A stretch of DNA of 59,576 nucleotides, taken from NCBI GenBank assembly GCA_052139855.1, contig JBKQVS010000178.1, positions 1-59,576 on the forward strand, written 5' to 3'. How positions within the stretch are numbered: the first letter of the stretch is position 1; the number at the start of each line of letters is the position of its first letter. The DNA comes from Desulfobaccales bacterium (GTDB lineage: Bacteria; Desulfobacterota; Desulfobaccia; Desulfobaccales; 0-14-0-80-60-11). The notes below the pieces were generated by a model that saw only the letters and a program-made list of their open reading frames with translations, was not told the DNA's origin and did no database searches. Position numbers and translations under genes: made by a program. Of this stretch, positions 6,720-37,770 are shown one piece after another.

Positions 6720-7589
6720 TCAGGCGGTGCTGTCTATGCAGAGCTCCCCAAACCCCAGACCCTTGATGAAGGCCGAAAAGGAGCGGCGCACCATTGGGGC
6801 CAGGAAGGCCGGCCATTCTTCCGGCGCCAGTTCCAGGCGGACCCGGTCCCCCTGCACCCGAAGGCGCACCCGGGAAAAGCCCCGGCGCCTGAGCCAGGCC
6901 TCGCCCCGGCCCACCCGGGCCAGGTCCTCCCTGGTTAGTTCGGTGTCATAGGGGAAGCGGGTGGCCAGACAACTCTGGGCGGGCCGCGCAGCATCGAGGC
7001 CCAGGCCCCGGCTCAGGGTGCGGATGGCCGCCTTCCCCAGGCCTGCGGCCAGGAGGGGGCTTGCGACACCCAGTTCCCGGAGGGCCCGGTGCCCAGGACG
7101 GAAATCGGCCAGGTCGTCCAGGTTGGTGCCGTCCCACAAAACCGGGAGCCCCCGGGCGGCGGCAATCTCCCAGGCCCGGGTAATGATGGCCCGCTTGCAG
7201 GCATAGCACCGCTGCCGGCGGTTGTGCCGGAATTCCGGGAGGCTGAGGGGATCAATTTCCCGCACCACGTGGTGGACGCGGAAGCGCCGAGCCAGGGCCC
7301 AGGCCGCGGCCAACTCTCCCGGCACGGTGTGGGGTCCGGTAAAGGTGATGGCGGTCAACCCCGGTCCCAGGGTGTGCGCCGCGGCGGCCAACAGGAGACT
7401 GGAATCCAGCCCGCCGGAGAACAGCAGGGCCGCCAGCCGGTGGCGCCGGAGGTATTCCTCTAAGAGATTGATGACCTCATCTCCATGATATGAGGGGAGG
7501 ACCGGGGTTTTTCGTAAATTCGTAAAGGGGTCCCCCGCCCTCACCTCAGCTATCGTGGCCCGCGGTGCTGATCCAGGAAGTTTCGCCAT
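6720..7589 (-). CDS. larE: LarE-family ATP-dependent sulfur transferase (CxxC...C type)
   Basis: FSGGLDS, RCYACK, DGTNLDD..FRPG, SCLATRFPY, VRLR; true start uncertain (see findings). Confidence 0.85.
   Translation of the reverse strand: MAKLPGSAPRATIAEVRAGDPFTNLRKTPVLPSYHGDEVINLLEEYLRRHRLAALLFSGGLDSSLLLAAAAHTLGPGLTAITFTGPHTVPGELAAAWALARRFRVHHVVREIDPLSLPEFRHNRRQRCYACKRAIITRAWEIAAARGLPVLWDGTNLDDLADFRPGHRALRELGVASPLLAAGLGKAAIRTLSRGLGLDAARPAQSCLATRFPYDTELTREDLARVGRGEAWLRRRGFSRVRLRVQGDRVRLELAPEEWPAFLAPMVRRSFSAFIKGLGFGELCIDSTA
7491..7548. repeat. REP-like palindrome, copy of 2340-2392
   Basis: TGAGGGGAGGACCGGGG...CCCCCGCCCTCACCTCA. Confidence 0.7.
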
Positions 7590-10028: not shown

Positions 10029-10331
10029 TCAGGTCTTCCGAACCAGCGGGATCACCTTGGCCTTGCCTTCGGGAGCGGGGGAGCCGGGCTGGGGCGGGGC
10101 TTTGGGAGGAATGAGCGTGAGTTGCACCGGCCGTCCCCCCATGGTGAACTCCTCTCCCTGGAGATGGGTCTCCTCCAGGATCCAGACCAGGGTTTGGGGG
10201 GGCAGGGCGAGCACAAGCAATTCCACTTGATACCACCCCCGCTTGACATCCGGGGTAATATCATTGACGCGGGCGTAAAACGCCGGCTTGCGGTCCAGGT
10301 GGACCAGCACCAAATCGTTGAGCGTAGCCAT
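10029..10331 (-). CDS. Hypothetical protein (about 100 aa)
   Basis: MATLNDLVLVHLDRKPAFYARVNDITPDVKRGWYQVELL..FTMGG; protein-like composition and host-like codon usage. Confidence 0.7.
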   Translation of the reverse strand: MATLNDLVLVHLDRKPAFYARVNDITPDVKRGWYQVELLVLALPPQTLVWILEETHLQGEEFTMGGRPVQLTLIPPKAPPQPGSPAPEGKAKVIPLVRKT

Positions 10332-10459
10332 GACTGTCTGATGGCGGATGGCCGGCAAGGATAATCATATCTGGGGGGACCGGCGGGACTACTCTACCAG
10401 ATCACCGCCAAAATGCAAGGGCGCGTCGTATCAACCGGAGTGGCTTAGAGGGAAACCGG

Positions 10460-10867
10460 ATGGCAGAAGTCCAATTCATCGATTTGAGCGACGAAATCAA
10501 GGCCGAGGCGCGGGGCACGAGTTTTTTCCCCTGGCAAAGGCGGCTGCAGGCGCCTGAGAACCTGGTTTCCACCTTCCATCTCGTTTCCATCAGCCCGGGC
10601 CAGAGCCGGGGCCACCACCTCCACCCCGGCCACGCGGAGTGGCTCTACCCCTTCCACGGCCGGGCCGTCTTAACCTGGGAAGCCAGCCCCGGCCAGGTCC
10701 GAGAACGGGTCATCACGGGCGACCGCACCCTGATCCACATCCCGCCGGGCCTGGCTCACGCGGTTACCAACCCCGGGCCGGCGATCCTCTATCTCCTGGC
10801 CTGGCGGGAGGTTACCGGCCCCGGCCCCACGGACCCCGAAACCATCCCCCACCCTCTGGGCGACTGA
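10460..10867 (+). CDS. Cupin domain protein
   Basis: RGHHLHPGHAEWL and IHIPPGLAHAVTN cupin motifs. Confidence 0.8.
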   Translation: MAEVQFIDLSDEIKAEARGTSFFPWQRRLQAPENLVSTFHLVSISPGQSRGHHLHPGHAEWLYPFHGRAVLTWEASPGQVRERVITGDRTLIHIPPGLAHAVTNPGPAILYLLAWREVTGPGPTDPETIPHPLGD

Positions 10868-10981: not shown

Positions 10982-11035
10982 AAGCCACGAAGGCTCTTTT
11001 TCCCGTCTTCAGACCGGAATAGGCCTTCGTGGCTT
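10982..11035. terminator. Perfect 13-bp inverted repeat between convergent genes, probable terminator
   Basis: AAGCCACGAAGGC (10982-10994) ... GCCTTCGTGGCTT (11023-11035). Confidence 0.55.
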
Positions 11036-11062: not shown

Positions 11063-11224
11063 TTAATGACAGCACTTATGCTCGTGCTGATGGTGCCCCT
11101 CTCCATGGATGTGTTCGTGAGTGTGCGCTTCGGCCTCGTGCCGGTGTTCGTGTCCATCATGGCTGTGGGTACAAGCCTCGTGGCTATGCTCGTGCTCATG
11201 CTTGTCCTGGTTGTGGCAGCACAT
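11063..11224 (-). CDS. His/Cys-rich metal-binding peptide (53 aa), Hpn-like
   Basis: Own translation MCCHNQDKHEHEHSHEACTHSHDGHEHRHEAEAHTHEHIHGEGHHQHEHKCCH; AAGGAGG SD 9 nt before ATG; below the ORF-track size cutoff. Confidence 0.85.
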   Translation of the reverse strand: MCCHNQDKHEHEHSHEACTHSHDGHEHRHEAEAHTHEHIHGEGHHQHEHKCCH

Positions 11225-11259
11225 ACTGTAGTGCCTCCTTTTCTTAATCTCTTGTTTAA

Positions 11260-11288
11260 AACATAAGAACTCATCTCATTGCCGTCAA
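11260..11288 (-). promoter_or_regulatory. Sigma70-type promoter for the His-rich peptide gene
   Basis: TTGACG (11288-11283) - N17 - TATGTT (11265-11260). Confidence 0.55.
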
Positions 11289-11388
11289 GACTTGCAAACC
11301 GTAACCCGTCCCACTCGCGCTTTTCATTTGCCGTTCCTCTAGGTCCATCTCGGCTAACGCTCCGGCCATAGGCCCGGGTGGGCCAAGG

Positions 11389-12141
11389 TCAGGCCGGGTG
11401 GCACACGGGGCAGCCCTGCAGCCGGAGAGGCTTCTCCAGATTGCAGGAGGCCAAAAGCTCCTCGTCCGCCATGATCGCCTGAGTGGGGCCGTCCGCGGCG
11501 ATGCGCCCCTCCTTGAGCACCAGGGTGCGGGGGCAGAGGTCCAGGACCAGGTCCAGGTCGTGGGTGGCGATGATCAGAGAATGCTCGAAAGTCTTCAAGA
11601 GTTCGATGAGCTGGCGGCGGGTCTTGGGGTCGAGGTTGGAGCTGGGCTCATCCATGACCAGGATGGCCGGGGCCAGGGACAACACTGCGGCAATGGCCAC
11701 GGCGCGCTTTTCCCCGCCGGACAGATGGTAAGGCGGGCGGTCCTTCAGGTGGACGGCGCCCACGGCGGCCAGGGCCTGCATCACCTGCCGGTCCACCTCC
11801 TCCGGGGTCAGGCCCAGATTTAAGGGGCCAAAGGCCACGTCATCATAAACCAGGGGCATGAACAGCTGATCGTCAGGGTCCTGAAAGATCAGGCCCACGG
11901 TGCGCCGCACGTGCTTCAGGGTCTTTTTGGTCACGGGCAGGTCCCCGATGCGCACCCGCCCGGCTTCCGGCAGCAGGCAGCCGTTAAACTGGAGGAGGAG
12001 GGTGGATTTGCCGGCGCCGTTGGCACCCACCAGGGCCACCTTCTCTCCATGGGTAATCCTGAAGGAAACTCCCTTCAAAACCTGGTTGCCGTCCGGGTAG
12101 CTATAGTACAGGTCGTCGATTTCAATGATATGATGGCTCAT
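11389..12141 (-). CDS. cbiO: ECF Ni/Co transporter ATPase (NikO/CbiO)
   Basis: GANGAGKST, FQDPDDQLF, LSGGEKR, DEPSSNLDP, THDLD. Confidence 0.92.
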   Translation of the reverse strand: MSHHIIEIDDLYYSYPDGNQVLKGVSFRITHGEKVALVGANGAGKSTLLLQFNGCLLPEAGRVRIGDLPVTKKTLKHVRRTVGLIFQDPDDQLFMPLVYDDVAFGPLNLGLTPEEVDRQVMQALAAVGAVHLKDRPPYHLSGGEKRAVAIAAVLSLAPAILVMDEPSSNLDPKTRRQLIELLKTFEHSLIIATHDLDLVLDLCPRTLVLKEGRIAADGPTQAIMADEELLASCNLEKPLRLQGCPVCHPA

Positions 12142-12950
12142 TTGAGCAGCTCCATGACCCAGGCGCCTGACAATTGGGAGACATTATAGAGCCTGAGCAG
12201 TATGAAAAAACCGGACCAGCCCAGGAAAAAGCCCACATCCCGGCCATGGAGGTGCAGGGGCCGGAGCAGGCGGATTTCGCCGTCGAAGCCCCGGGAGAGC
12301 ATGGCCAGGTGCAGGCGCTGGGCCCGGTCCAGGGTGCGCAGGAGCAGGTGGCCGAGCATGGAGCTATAGGCCCCAAAGCCCTGGCCGCGGCCATCAAAGG
12401 TGCGCAAGGCCCGGGCCCGCACCATCCGGGCGGCTTCGCCCCCCAGCACGAACAGATAGCGGTAGAGGAAGAGGAGCTGAAGAGCGAAGGCCCGGGGCAG
12501 CCCCAGCCGCTCCAGCGCGGCGCACACCTGGTGAAAGCCGGTGACGGCCACCAGAATCAGGGCGGCGCTCACCGTCAGGACGAACCGGAGCATAATGGAG
12601 AAAAAGGAAACCCAACCGCCGGAAATGGCCAGGGGGCCGAGGTGCGCCATGACCTGCCGGTCCAGCAAGGGGTTGAAGATGCCGATGAAAAAGGCGAAAG
12701 GCGCGGCGATCAAGATTTTCTTCCCCAGGTACCCGACGGGCACATTGCCCAAGGCAATGAGGACCACCGGGTAGAGAATGAAGGGAATCAGGCTGCCGAC
12801 GGCGTACTTGGGGAAGGAGACCACGGCCACGATGAACACCATGGTGGTGAGGAGTTTCACCCGGGGGTCGAGCCGGTGGATGGGGGTGGCCTGGTAGGAC
12901 AGCGTCTCCAGATAGCCGATATTATAGAGAGAATTTTCGATGGTGCCCAT
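12138..12950 (-). CDS. cbiQ: ECF Ni/Co transporter T component (NikQ/CbiQ)
   Basis: HRLDPRVK, YRYLFVL..EA.RM.RAR..R, AMLSRGF. Confidence 0.92.
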   Translation of the reverse strand: MGTIENSLYNIGYLETLSYQATPIHRLDPRVKLLTTMVFIVAVVSFPKYAVGSLIPFILYPVVLIALGNVPVGYLGKKILIAAPFAFFIGIFNPLLDRQVMAHLGPLAISGGWVSFFSIMLRFVLTVSAALILVAVTGFHQVCAALERLGLPRAFALQLLFLYRYLFVLGGEAARMVRARALRTFDGRGQGFGAYSSMLGHLLLRTLDRAQRLHLAMLSRGFDGEIRLLRPLHLHGRDVGFFLGWSGFFILLRLYNVSQLSGAWVMELLK

Positions 12951-12974
12951 GGGTGCGCCTCAGAAAGCCCGGGG

Positions 12975-14012
12975 TCAGCCTTGGTGACCAGCATACTTTT
13001 TCAGGCCGAAGCCGATGGCCCCGACCAGGAGCAGGGTGATGGCGGCCCCCAGCACCCCCGCCAGGGATCTGCCGGGGTTGACGTCGGGCCAGCTCTCTGC
13101 TTTTTTGGCATTTCTTTCGCCTTCCGGCTTCCTGAAGTCATAGTCCGGCAGAAAGGCGAGCTTTTCCTGGAGGGAGGCCAGGACCCCGTGCGCCCCGGCC
13201 ATGGGGGCCTCAACCTCCTCCTTGCCGGTGACGCCCTGGATGGCCCACTCCAGCCCGTCCGGATGGGTGGAGGCAAACCAGGAGAGGAGGCCGCCGGTGA
13301 ACAGGGCCAGGGCCACCAGTCCGATGATGACCGGCTTGAAGGAGCGGGGCGGGCCCGACGCCGCGGCGGGGAGCGCCATCTCCAGGATTTCCGGCCGGGC
13401 CTTCCAGACGAAGGTCACCACCGCCGCGGTGATGAGGCCTTCCACCACGCCGATGGCCAGGTGGATCGGCAGCATCAAGAGCATAAACGTGACGAAAGGA
13501 AGTTCCGAAATGCCGGAAAAGAGGGTCTCAAGAACGACCGCGCAAGCGCCCATCACCACGCTTAGCATGGCAGCGGCCAGGGCTCCCTGCAGAATGCGGC
13601 CCCGGGTGGTGCGGTCTCCCACGATCTTCTGATAAATAAAGGGATAGGCTACGAAACAGGCAAAAAATCCCATATTGAAGATGTTGCATCCCAAGGCCAG
13701 CAAACCGCCGTCAGCAAAAAACAAGGCCTGCACCGTGATCACCGAGGCCAGGGTGAGAAAGGCGGCATAAGGTCCCAACAGGATGCTCAGAATGATGCCG
13801 CCCACCAGGTGGCCGCTGGAACCGGTGGCGGGGATGGTGAAGTTGATCATTTGGGCCGCGAACACGAAGGCCCCCAGGACTCCCATGAGGGGGAGCTTGC
13901 GGTCGTCCATTTCCTGTTTCAGTTTCCTGGCGCTGTAATAGGTGAGGCCCGCGGTGGCGGCCCACATGGTACCGCCCACTACCGGGGAAATTAAGGCGTC
14001 GGCCATGTGCAT
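12975..14012 (-). CDS. ECF Ni/Co S component fused to a PDGLE domain (NikMN type)
   Basis: Metal-binding N-terminus MHMADAL, FAAQMINF, TGSSGHL, GGLLALGCN; C-terminal ASTHPDGLEW..LPDY. Confidence 0.92.
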   Translation of the reverse strand: MHMADALISPVVGGTMWAATAGLTYYSARKLKQEMDDRKLPLMGVLGAFVFAAQMINFTIPATGSSGHLVGGIILSILLGPYAAFLTLASVITVQALFFADGGLLALGCNIFNMGFFACFVAYPFIYQKIVGDRTTRGRILQGALAAAMLSVVMGACAVVLETLFSGISELPFVTFMLLMLPIHLAIGVVEGLITAAVVTFVWKARPEILEMALPAAASGPPRSFKPVIIGLVALALFTGGLLSWFASTHPDGLEWAIQGVTGKEEVEAPMAGAHGVLASLQEKLAFLPDYDFRKPEGERNAKKAESWPDVNPGRSLAGVLGAAITLLLVGAIGFGLKKYAGHQG

Positions 14013-14075
14013 GACTCATCCTCCTGATCGTTTAAGAGCATGGTTACCTCCTGAATTTCTCCAAAATTTCTTGGC

Positions 14076-15089
14076 CTAAAAATTATGATATGCGGTAACC
14101 ATAGGCGTGACTTTACGACTGCCGGCTTTGCCCATCAGGTCGATGGCGGTGCCGGCGGAAACGGCCCATTTTTCCGTGATAATGTACTCGATCCCCGGGA
14201 GGAGTCCCAAAAGGGTGCTGGGGGATTGGAACCCCTGAGGAGAAGAAATATTGGTCCAGGTCCAGTTGCTGTACATTTCCAGCAGCAGAACCCATTTGGG
14301 ATTGATGGGATATTCCGCCGCCAGGTTGAAGGTTACAAATTCACGGGAGCGGACCGAACTAGGGTTCGAGGTATAAAGGTTAACCGGACTATTTAACCAA
14401 ATATTGCTATAGAATAGGAACGGTTTCAGCCATTTGTAGAGGTTGATGCCGGTGGTGAAGGTGAAGGCCCCGGTGCCGATGGCATCCTGACCCAGGAGCG
14501 CCGGATTGAGGTGGTGGGCGTGGCCGGTGGGAAAACCCACGCCTCCCACCCCCGTGACCGCGGGCGTGAATTCGGTTTCTTCCAGCAACAAGTACTTGGC
14601 CACCGCCGTAACATCTCCGATTCCGCCGTAACTGGCGGAACGTTCGCCATTGGGACCGGCAATACTCGCATCGAGGCTGTTGCAAAAGTTATTGATGAAG
14701 GGAGCGATGACATAGAGCTCCAGGTTTTTGGTAGGGCCATAGGTAAATTTGACCGGCATGAGAAAAGTGTAATAATTCCCCTTGGCACTCGTATAGCGCC
14801 AGTTATTAGAGAAAAGCGCTGGGGAAAAAGAAAAGGCCGAGAGGACCTGGAGACTGGCATGGTGCTCCTCAATGGGAAGGCAACTGTCGCTGATCAGGGG
14901 GCCGCACGTGGTGGGGGCTCCCTCTTTTTTTGCTGCTTTTTTCTCTTCCTCCGCTTGTTCCGGTCCTGGTTTCTCCATAATGGCGGCTGGGCCTTGGGCC
15001 GCGGCCGGCACCGCAGAACCAAATACCCACCCGTTGAAAAAAATCAGCAGCAGGAACATTGCTCCTTTCCTGCAATGAATCAATCCCAT
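14076..15089 (-). CDS. Outer-membrane beta-barrel of the COG4313/Phenol_MetA_deg ('transporter') type
   Basis: Signal peptide, GGIGD, GFPTG, alternating beta-strand pattern, C-terminal Phe; AAGGGAG SD before ATG 15089. Confidence 0.7.
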   Translation of the reverse strand: MGLIHCRKGAMFLLLIFFNGWVFGSAVPAAAQGPAAIMEKPGPEQAEEEKKAAKKEGAPTTCGPLISDSCLPIEEHHASLQVLSAFSFSPALFSNNWRYTSAKGNYYTFLMPVKFTYGPTKNLELYVIAPFINNFCNSLDASIAGPNGERSASYGGIGDVTAVAKYLLLEETEFTPAVTGVGGVGFPTGHAHHLNPALLGQDAIGTGAFTFTTGINLYKWLKPFLFYSNIWLNSPVNLYTSNPSSVRSREFVTFNLAAEYPINPKWVLLLEMYSNWTWTNISSPQGFQSPSTLLGLLPGIEYIITEKWAVSAGTAIDLMGKAGSRKVTPMVTAYHNF

Positions 15090-15221
15090 ATTTACTCCCT
15101 TGCTGAAATAACAAAAAAAACCACGAAAACCTGGCACCTGCTGGCACCCAAGCCTTCGTGGCTGTTTGGCTCAAATTGGTTATTTCTCTGCTATCCGGGG
15201 TTCATCCCCGAAGTCTCGCTC

Positions 15222-15250
15222 AATTTATGGCAAGTGGGAGAAAATGTCAA
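15222..15250 (-). promoter_or_regulatory. Sigma70-type promoter of the barrel-nikMNQO operon
   Basis: TTGACA (15250-15245) - N17 - TAAATT (15227-15222). Confidence 0.55.
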
Positions 15251-37017: not shown

Positions 37018-37770
37018 ATGGACAGCAAAGTTCTGGAGCAGTTGCTGGAGGAGGTCCGGGCCGGGCGGGTGCCGGTGAGCGCGGCGGTGGAGCGCCTCCG
37101 GACCCTGCCGTTCGAAGACCTGGGGTTCGCCCGGGTGGACCATCACCGCCAGCTCCGCCAAGGTTTTCCCGAGGTGGTGTTCGCCGGGGGCAAAAGCCTG
37201 GAGCAGGTCCGGGGCATCCTCACGTCGCTGAGCGCCCGGGCCGACCACGTCCTGGTGACCCGCCTGGCCCCGGAAGCGGCAGCGGCGCTACAGCTTGACT
37301 TTCCCAACGCCCGCTATCACCCCGCGTCCCAGGCGTTGACCCTCAGCCGGGGCGAAGTCCCCGAACGGGGCCGGGGTCTGATCCTGGTGATTTCGGCCGG
37401 AACCTCGGATATTCCCGTGGCCGAAGAAGCCCTGGTCACCGCCCAAATCATGGGCCACCGGGCTGAAGCTCTTTATGACGTGGGGGTGGCCGGCCTGCAC
37501 CGTCTCCTGGCCCACCAGAAACTGCTGGTCCAGGCCACCTGCTTCATTGTGGTGGCGGGTATGGAAGGGGCACTGCCCAGCGTGGTGGCGGGATTGGTGG
37601 ACCGACCGGTGATCGCGGTGCCCACCAGCGTGGGCTACGGCGCTTCTTTCGGCGGCCTGGCGGCGCTGTTGGCCATGCTCAACTCCTGTGCCACCGGCCT
37701 AGCGGTGGTCAACATCGACAACGGTTTCGGGGCCGGGTACCTGGCGGCCCTGATGAACCGCAAAGATTGA
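37018..37770 (+). CDS. larB: Nickel pincer cofactor biosynthesis protein LarB
   Basis: DHHRQLRQGFPEVV, SAGTSDIPVAEEA, DVGVAGLHRL, AGMEGALPSV, NIDNGFGA. Confidence 0.95.
   Translation: MDSKVLEQLLEEVRAGRVPVSAAVERLRTLPFEDLGFARVDHHRQLRQGFPEVVFAGGKSLEQVRGILTSLSARADHVLVTRLAPEAAAALQLDFPNARYHPASQALTLSRGEVPERGRGLILVISAGTSDIPVAEEALVTAQIMGHRAEALYDVGVAGLHRLLAHQKLLVQATCFIVVAGMEGALPSVVAGLVDRPVIAVPTSVGYGASFGGLAALLAMLNSCATGLAVVNIDNGFGAGYLAALMNRKD

Follow-up and report, generated by a model that had tools for sequence, protein, structure and literature searches.

A candidate nickel acquisition operon of a Desulfobaccales bacterium with a predicted COG4313-type outer-membrane barrel, an ECF importer, a His-rich peptide and a leader RNA

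The passage of nickel and cobalt through the outer membrane is poorly understood. TonB-dependent receptors and unspecific porins are the accepted routes, and comparative studies of nickel uptake credit the entry step to them (PMC11247825). The question is raised by an operon in a 59,576-nucleotide stretch of DNA (contig JBKQVS010000178.1, assembly GCA_052139855.1; hereafter the window) from a member of the Desulfobaccales, a soil sulfate-reducer relative. In this operon, a gene for a small barrel of the COG4313 type precedes the genes of a nickel/cobalt energy-coupling factor (ECF) importer, and a His/Cys-rich peptide gene follows them. We consider it reasonably probable that the operon serves to acquire nickel, and possibly cobalt as well, along the path from the outside of the cell to the cytoplasm.

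The barrel, nikMN, nikQ, nikO and peptide genes and the barrel motifs were all located on the minus strand at the positions given for them by the original prediction, which had been made from the sequence without database searches. The single promoter that it claimed was confirmed insofar as a main promoter was found; a second promoter-like site makes it uncertain that this promoter is the only one. A leader of approximately 125 nt with a terminator hairpin was an element absent from the text of that prediction. The features, in the direction of transcription, are as follows.

15222..15250, minus strand: sigma-70-like main promoter, TTGACA-17-TAAATT, 10 of 12 consensus matches
15109..15219, minus strand: 5′ leader RNA (model R1), approximately 125 nt between the main promoter and the barrel gene
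14076..15089, minus strand: barrel gene, 337 amino acids, PF13557 29.7 bits
12975..14012, minus strand: cbiM+PDGLE fusion (nikMN type), N-terminus MHMADAL, PF01891 207.8 bits, PF13190 100.6 bits
12138..12950, minus strand: cbiQ/nikQ, ECF T component, PF02361 105.6 bits, TIGR02454 135.1 bits (above cut-off)
11389..12141, minus strand: cbiO/nikO, ECF ATPase, PF00005, TIGR01166 215.7 bits (above cut-off)
11260..11288, minus strand: possible second promoter before the peptide gene, TTGACG-17-TATGTT, 9 of 12, consensus match alone
11063..11224, minus strand: gene of the 53-amino-acid His/Cys-rich peptide, AAGGAGG Shine-Dalgarno sequence
10984..11033, strand ".": palindromic terminator 3′ of the peptide gene, arms GCCACGAAGGC and GCCTTCGTGGC, inner hairpin CCGGUC-UGAA-GACCGG

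The barrel start, an ATG at 15089, was backed by the N-termini of orthologs. The cbiO start overlapped the cbiQ stop by 4 nt, and the second promoter-like site lay inside the 164-nt gap between cbiO and the peptide gene. The palindromic terminator recurred 3′ of the peptide orthologs of ten further loci (L038, L039, L040, L044, L061, L084, L091, L093, L098, and L106). The sequencing runs containing the sequence were DNA metagenomes only.

Gene content, predicted fold, conserved linkage and membership in a shared leader-RNA regulon were computed here. We infer a route in which the barrel, a small 12-stranded outer-membrane channel with the COG4313/FapF fold, would pass the metal, probably nickel, as an ion or a small complex inward to the periplasm without TonB, and NikMN (CbiM-PDGLE), NikQ and NikO would form a group-I ECF importer carrying it across the inner membrane. 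Once in the cytoplasm, the metal would be bound by the 53-amino-acid peptide, which would act as a buffer or hand-off point, and the leader RNA, ending in an intrinsic terminator, would set expression by attenuation. Transporters of the NikMNQO/CbiMNQO group-I ECF type are reportedly treated by Rodionov et al. in 2006 (J Bacteriol 188:317). The described systems (PMC545781) and the window operon are alike in having CbiM/NikM with an N-terminal Met-His, a PDGLE N component, CbiQ and a single CbiO in one operon. They differ in that the window operon adds an outer-membrane barrel 5′ and a His-rich peptide 3′, and in that a new leader RNA stands in a genome without NikR and a window without a cobalamin riboswitch. 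The extra parts of the described systems are NikK/NikL or TonB receptors, not a COG4313-type barrel; NikK and NikL are those named in comparative nickel-uptake studies. Overall, the operon appears to combine parts of known kinds into a new functional variant, a reading well supported by its genomic context.

Linkage of the barrel to the importer was conserved. Three orthologs of the barrel (68–79% identity) were found in five places in independent assemblies, each directly upstream of CbiM+PDGLE. When 41 related genomes were scanned, 48 CbiM loci were found; 20 of them, spread over 17 of 36 genomes, had a barrel within 6 kb, against a chance expectation of approximately 0.4 of the 48. Co-conservation of barrel and nikM, on which the original prediction had staked itself, was thus kept in 5 of 5 orthologous places, at 20 of 48 CbiM loci and in two gene orders. 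In the first order, that of the window, the barrel precedes the ECF genes; in the second, seen in another family of the order, it follows cbiM-(nikL-like)-cbiQ-cbiO-(DUF4198). The survival of this linkage through rearrangement is the strongest genomic sign that barrel and importer may share a function. Two further loci (L044 and L060) have the leader R1 followed by CooT, barrel, CbiM, CbiQ and CbiO, with the peptide additionally present in L044. The genome to which the window belongs has three full-length barrels, every one in a nickel setting.

Barrel 1: window operon
Barrel 2, contig C9: DUF3842, CooT, CbiM, two NikL-like genes, CbiQ, CbiO, DUF4198, barrel, second DUF4198
Barrel 3, contig C70: barrel, followed by CooC and CooS

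The C9 locus also has a duplicated His-rich protein after the second DUF4198, and the genome has two CooS genes.

The barrel matched PF13557 above the gathering cut-off of 22 bits (E = 8.3e-07), and its paralog in the C9 locus scored 28.7 bits. Its signal peptide ends AAAQ-G and its C-terminal residue is F. An AlphaFold2 model built with 64 homologs showed 12 strands with a mean predicted local distance difference test score of 77.8. The top fold matches in Foldseek were FapF (5o65, E = 2.7e-12) and Pput2725 (4rl8_A, E = 3.4e-11, template modelling score 0.74). A profile of the barrel subfamily reached no barrel among the PDB sequences and gave a single chance lipase match; because this search missed 4RL8, the link to that structure is drawn from the fold and the Pfam hidden Markov model. 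By model, the protein is a distant branch of the PF13557/COG4313 fold and a predicted outer-membrane channel. It shares with the COG4313/PF13557 channels (Pput2725, PDB 4RL8; TcpY; SphA) the Pfam match and the fold, and differs in its low identity of 14–16% and its own motifs GPxxxD...PIE and TGHxxxLNP, which extend across the subfamily. The acidic residues E124, E259, E271, E301 and D317 are invariant. Residues 57–77, with the conserved GPxxxD and PIE, lie before strand 1; in Pput2725, the segment before strand 1 plugs the lumen (PMC4493636). In the listed papers that mention COG4313 or PF13557, the titles and abstracts showed no link of the family to metals.

The match to FapF, an amyloid secretion pore, as the best fold hit would suit a barrel with no import role, such as an exporter, an envelope structural protein or a FapF-like secretion pore that is merely syntenic with the importer. 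However, the N-terminal coiled-coil and plug domain of the FapF type were not seen in the window barrel, no genes for a secretion substrate lie nearby, and the linkage persists across changes in gene order, two families, two deep barrel clades and a shared regulatory RNA. We regard this explanation as highly improbable.

Membership in a regulon was indicated by the leader RNA. The window leader had a folding energy of −46.4 kcal/mol (z −3.5) and comprised a P1 hairpin at 15195..15211 (CGGGG-AUGAA-CCCCG), an A-rich linker, and a terminator hairpin at 15116..15162, with 5′ arm GCCACGAAGGC, followed by U8. Orthologous operons keep the promoter, with the same TTGACA and −10 arrangement, P1 with an A(U/C)GAA loop, the A-rich linker, and the terminator 5′ arm. 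In an alignment of 29 sequences, compensatory changes were observed in P1 and the base of the terminator stem, at 8 of 19 pairs, the terminator pairing GCCAYGAAGGC with CRTGGC as C-G, U-A or U-G. A reading of GCCACGAA...TTCGTGGC as a DNA operator was dropped, since the spacing varies and the compensatory changes preserve RNA pairing. Rfam gave no match in the operon at the gathering threshold or at a permissive E-value, and a literature search found no paper that describes the element.

With the R1 covariance model, the window leader scored 91.9 bits, and the 3.3-Mb genome had three sites only, namely that of the window operon and two in the C9 nickel locus (L036 4423-4529 and 5646-5759). For the wider barrel family, the contexts of 85 barrels in 82 loci were assigned with a tblastn panel and Pfam checks, most neighbouring open reading frames being unannotated; R1 was present in 38 metal-context loci and in 0 of 23 loci of the ammonium transporter Amt or the potassium transporter Kdp. 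Across the phylum, it was found in 43 of 301 sampled genomes (loci L123-L151 among the examples), and the barrel subfamily in 16 of the 301. Genes downstream of R1 elsewhere in the phylum encode TonB-dependent receptors, NikA-like SBP_bac_5, FecCD, Peripla_BP_2, DUF4198, CbiM/NikM with an MHIPDGYL N-terminus, DUF3842, CooT, and FmdE-like and TrmO_N-like proteins. The metal-import role given to the operon in the original prediction gained from this RNA, which is common to other nickel-uptake genes. R1 is put forward as a candidate new nickel-linked riboregulator without an Rfam entry. It resembles the NiCo (czcD) and cobalamin riboswitches in being a cis-acting leader with an expression platform in front of metal-related transport genes; it differs in consisting of two hairpins only, with A(U/C)GAA loops, and matches neither. 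Unlike the NiCo riboswitch, it heads uptake genes, not efflux genes.

By sequence inspection, the terminator 5′ arm can fold on itself into a mini-hairpin, GCC-ACGAA-GGC, whose loop is that of P1; this suggests that a factor binding both loops might block termination. DUF3842 and a CooT homolog are the first genes after R1 in the C9 locus (L036 4687-5287) and in several relatives, and R1 may have its trans-acting partner in this pair. CooT has an RNA-binding-like fold.

Because R1 precedes TonB receptors in other families of the phylum, the barrel appears to occupy the regulon slot that those receptors hold there. The TonB-independent route proposed in the original prediction fits a lineage poor in such receptors: Plug domains numbered one in this genome and 0 in 10 of 18 congeners. 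The single receptor (C9:2354-3499) follows a cobalamin riboswitch and a paralog of an 85-amino-acid protein described below, and is presumably a BtuB-type corrinoid receptor. The TonB-dependent nickel receptors (FrpB4, FecA3, NikH and others) also provide an outer-membrane entry step for nickel, and elsewhere in the phylum some families have such receptors under R1. These receptors have 22 strands and a plug and draw on TonB for energy, in contrast to the 12 predicted strands of the window barrel, in which no Plug domain was found and no TonB box was identifiable.

The same parts could serve cobalt, with Co(II) imported for corrinoid synthesis and buffered by the peptide. The CbiM, CbiQ and CbiO models carry cobalt names; in four loci (L038, L040, L085, and L098) the unit of leader, barrel and cbiMNQO comes directly after a gene for a periplasmic CbiK that is headed by a cobalamin riboswitch. 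In L061, a cobalamin riboswitch heads CbiM-CbiQ-CbiO-barrel-CbiK, and on the opposite strand R1 precedes CooT-CbiM-CbiQ-CbiO-peptide; the presence of both RNAs in a single locus points to distinct signals, and the peptide there belongs to the R1/CooT system, not to the riboswitch system. In the window, Rfam gave no cobalamin riboswitch, whereas five are in use in other parts of the genome; these head other genes, among them CbiK with the 85-amino-acid gene and the sole TonB receptor. R1, the leader of the window operon, travels with CooT, NikA-like SBP_bac_5 and NikM of the MHIPDG type, and the other two barrels of the genome flank CooT and CooC-CooS. Cobalt is thus considered unlikely for the window operon. 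Nickel is moderately favoured over it, because the operon carries R1 and the peptide and because L061 has two RNAs for two systems. The assignment is based on CooT, carbon monoxide dehydrogenase (CODH) and leader context in place of a NikR site or riboswitch, that is, on CooT in R1 operons, CooC-CooS beside barrels, and NikA/NikM-type genes in the regulon. LarE and LarB, whose presence in the window had also been predicted and was borne out by profile matches, were counted on the nickel side. LarE lies at 6720-7589 on the minus strand (TIGR00268, 222.6 bits) and LarB at 37018-37770 on the plus strand (NF033503, 292.1 bits), 30 kb apart.

A pair of genes was repeatedly observed after cobalamin riboswitches, namely a CbiK/CbiX chelatase homolog with a signal peptide and a conserved 85-amino-acid Cys/His protein without a Pfam family. 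The pair is present at C70:12326-13820 in this genome and in L038 (5015-6456), L040, L085, L086, L090, L093, L098 and L104, and often adjoins barrel loci.

The peptide contains 19 His (36%) and 5 Cys among its 53 residues, arranged as MCCH...HEHEH...GHH.H.H.KCCH, and has no signal peptide. It belongs to no Pfam or NCBIfam family, and a homolog database search with it gave a single match. Since the family is mostly uncalled in databases, orthologs were sought by scanning the 82 loci, which yielded 12 of 53–55 amino acids with the pattern MCC[HQN]..HEHEH..GHH.H.H.CC[HQK]. Every one of the 12 belongs to a Ni/Co ECF locus, within which its position and strand vary. Because the 12 share this pattern and setting, the peptide is, on sequence grounds, a real, conserved and largely unannotated gene, and its place in the system, as first predicted, is borne out by a family found only in such loci. 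It is read as a putative cytoplasmic metal buffer or hand-off peptide, an analogue, not a homolog, of Hpn. Like Hpn and Hpn-2 of Helicobacter pylori (PMC4671568), it is small, cytoplasmic and nickel-linked, with approximately one-third His and with Cys pairs. It differs in its regular HEHEH/H-x-H pattern, with CC at both ends, and in that its gene lies inside an uptake locus whereas the Hpn genes stand apart; Pfam and NCBIfam searches gave no sign of homology between the two. A second type of His-rich peptide, of 51 amino acids (MCKK...HEHEH...KESK), was also seen; it occurs as a tandem duplicate in the C9 locus of this genome (L036 11900-12193, contig end) and adjoins the MCCH type in L091 (9419-9574).

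The barrel family extends beyond nickel loci. A scan of species-representative genomes gave 80 barrel loci, all in Desulfobaccales, Syntrophobacterales and neighbours, and the 85 barrels were distributed among contexts as follows.

Ni/Co ECF: 25 barrels
Amt-GlnK: 17 barrels
CODH (CooC/CooS): 15 barrels
Feo: 7 barrels
KdpABC: 6 barrels
Periplasmic CbiK only: 3 barrels
Without a recognised neighbour: 12 barrels

No genes of aromatic or lipid catabolism were noticed beside the barrels in the 82 loci, in which most neighbouring open reading frames are unannotated; the context of the subfamily is uptake of Ni/Co, Fe, NH4+ and K+, unlike that of the COG4313/PF13557 channels, which is aromatic and lipid catabolism. 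In the maximum-likelihood tree, one deep clade was wholly metal-linked, and the other comprised Ni/CODH subclades, the window barrel among them, and a 24-member Amt/Kdp subclade with Shimodaira-Hasegawa approximate likelihood-ratio test (SH-aLRT) support of 95, confined to Amt or Kdp loci except for one member without a recognised neighbour. The clustering of context labels on the tree was matched by 0 of 200 shuffles, and on this basis the family appears to consist of outer-membrane channels related to cations, among which paralogs have specialised.

The Amt-linked paralogs lie directly 3′ of Amt-GlnK pairs (17 loci) and the Kdp-linked ones beside KdpABC (6 loci), all within L046-L080; examples are L046 7001-7972, L055 7001-7993, L071 and L072. 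Their positions suggest that they may be outer-membrane channels for NH4+ and K+. Directly 3′ of the clade-B barrels, in approximately 20 loci (e.g. L073 8813-9283), a gene was observed for a conserved 156-amino-acid lipoprotein-like protein whose signal ends LVGC and which has no Pfam family; it could be a channel partner. A clade-B barrel is also encoded by the cultivable relative Desulfobacca acetoxidans (L089).

Several observations weigh against the reading as a nickel acquisition operon. The closest paralogs within the genus include ones adjoining Amt and Kdp, so that the pore might admit cations in general. The TGHxxxLNP motif, with H190, is present in nearly all members, including the Amt/Kdp paralogs, and the C-x7-C pair is shared with the Amt-GlnK/Kdp paralogs and is not metal-specific. 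The characterised COG4313 members are tied to hydrophobic substrates (PMC4493636). The genome has no NikR_C domain, so that the usual nickel marker, a NikR site, is unusable. For some members of the family, cobalt must be taken seriously as the metal, as indicated by the L061 barrel in its cobalamin-riboswitch operon, and the peptide gene may have a promoter of its own (9 of 12 consensus matches).

The barrel could be an unselective pore for small cations or small solutes, linked by co-expression to whichever uptake system it is to feed. Its paralogs stand beside Amt-GlnK (17), Kdp (6), Feo (7) and CODH genes (15), identical copies occur at the Amt locus and the Kdp locus of one genome (L071, L072), and TGHxxxLNP and GPxxxD are common to all clades. 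The 24-member clade is separate from the metal-linked clades, however (SH-aLRT 95; 0 of 200 shuffles), EEHH is limited to Ni/CODH-linked members, and the leader regulon leaves out the Amt/Kdp copies. This alternative, which is partly compatible with a nickel acquisition operon, appears somewhat unlikely. The motifs themselves, C62-x7-C70, E74-E75-H76-H77 and G189-H-A-H-H193, were all found in the window barrel; by strand order in the model, EEHH sits in the segment before strand 1 and GHAHH in the long loop between strands 5 and 6. EEHH or DEHH occurred in 8 cases, only among Ni/CODH-linked members, versus 0 of 24 members of the Amt/Kdp clade; these cases cluster phylogenetically, and in the closest Ni-locus orthologs of the window barrel the motif is replaced by ETGH or ETGK. 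The original prediction had taken the His and Cys motifs as a sign of a metal pore. With H190 and C-x7-C also in Amt/Kdp paralogs and EEHH variable, this claim failed, and the His clusters were dropped as evidence after a clade-by-clade survey showed them to be unspecific to metal-linked members.

Pput2725 is a poor ion conductor with detergent bound inside (PMC4493636), and the tie of COG4313 to hydrophobic solutes would suit a barrel that admits an organic nickel complex, such as a metallophore or a Ni-amino-acid chelate, by a hydrophobic or amphipathic route. R1-headed genes elsewhere include TonB receptors, FecCD and Peripla_BP_2, the usual carriers of chelates. A non-exhaustive search of the examined loci revealed no genes for metallophore synthesis, and the Kdp/Amt-adjoining paralogs argue for small ions. 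S components of the NikM type bind the bare ion via the N-terminal Met-His, as reported for the TtNikM2 structure, which also speaks against a complex. Entry of nickel in such a form is considered improbable.

A wider proposal joins the family to the regulon. The COG4313-fold subfamily of 12-stranded barrels would comprise dedicated, TonB-independent outer-membrane cation channels, with separate Ni/Co clades accompanying ECF, CooT and CODH, Fe(II) clades accompanying Feo, and NH4+/K+ clades accompanying Amt and Kdp, in Desulfobaccales and neighbours. R1 would be nickel-responsive in the nickel branch, either as a two-hairpin riboswitch or through attenuation that depends on a small metal-binding protein, for instance CooT, and would also govern TonB receptors and NikA/NikM systems in other Thermodesulfobacteriota. 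As one joint claim this is tentative, with the chances somewhat against it. It would extend the reach of the COG4313 fold from hydrophobic solutes to cations. A small barrel family genetically tied to nickel importers, in a lineage nearly without TonB receptors, offers a concrete candidate, open to cloning, for metal entry without TonB. The analysis also brought to light a family of His-rich peptides that lack annotation, and R1 could serve as a marker of nickel regulons in anaerobes without NikR. Such anaerobes run CODH, hydrogenase and Lar-type nickel enzymes and matter for carbon cycling in soils and peat.

Beyond the 3′ end of the operon, the window contains a gene for a 109-amino-acid protein without a Pfam family (MATLNDLVLVHLD...; 10029-10358, minus strand) and a cupin gene (10460-10867, plus strand), both of which stay syntenic with the Ni operon in L033, L034, L039, L040 and L103.

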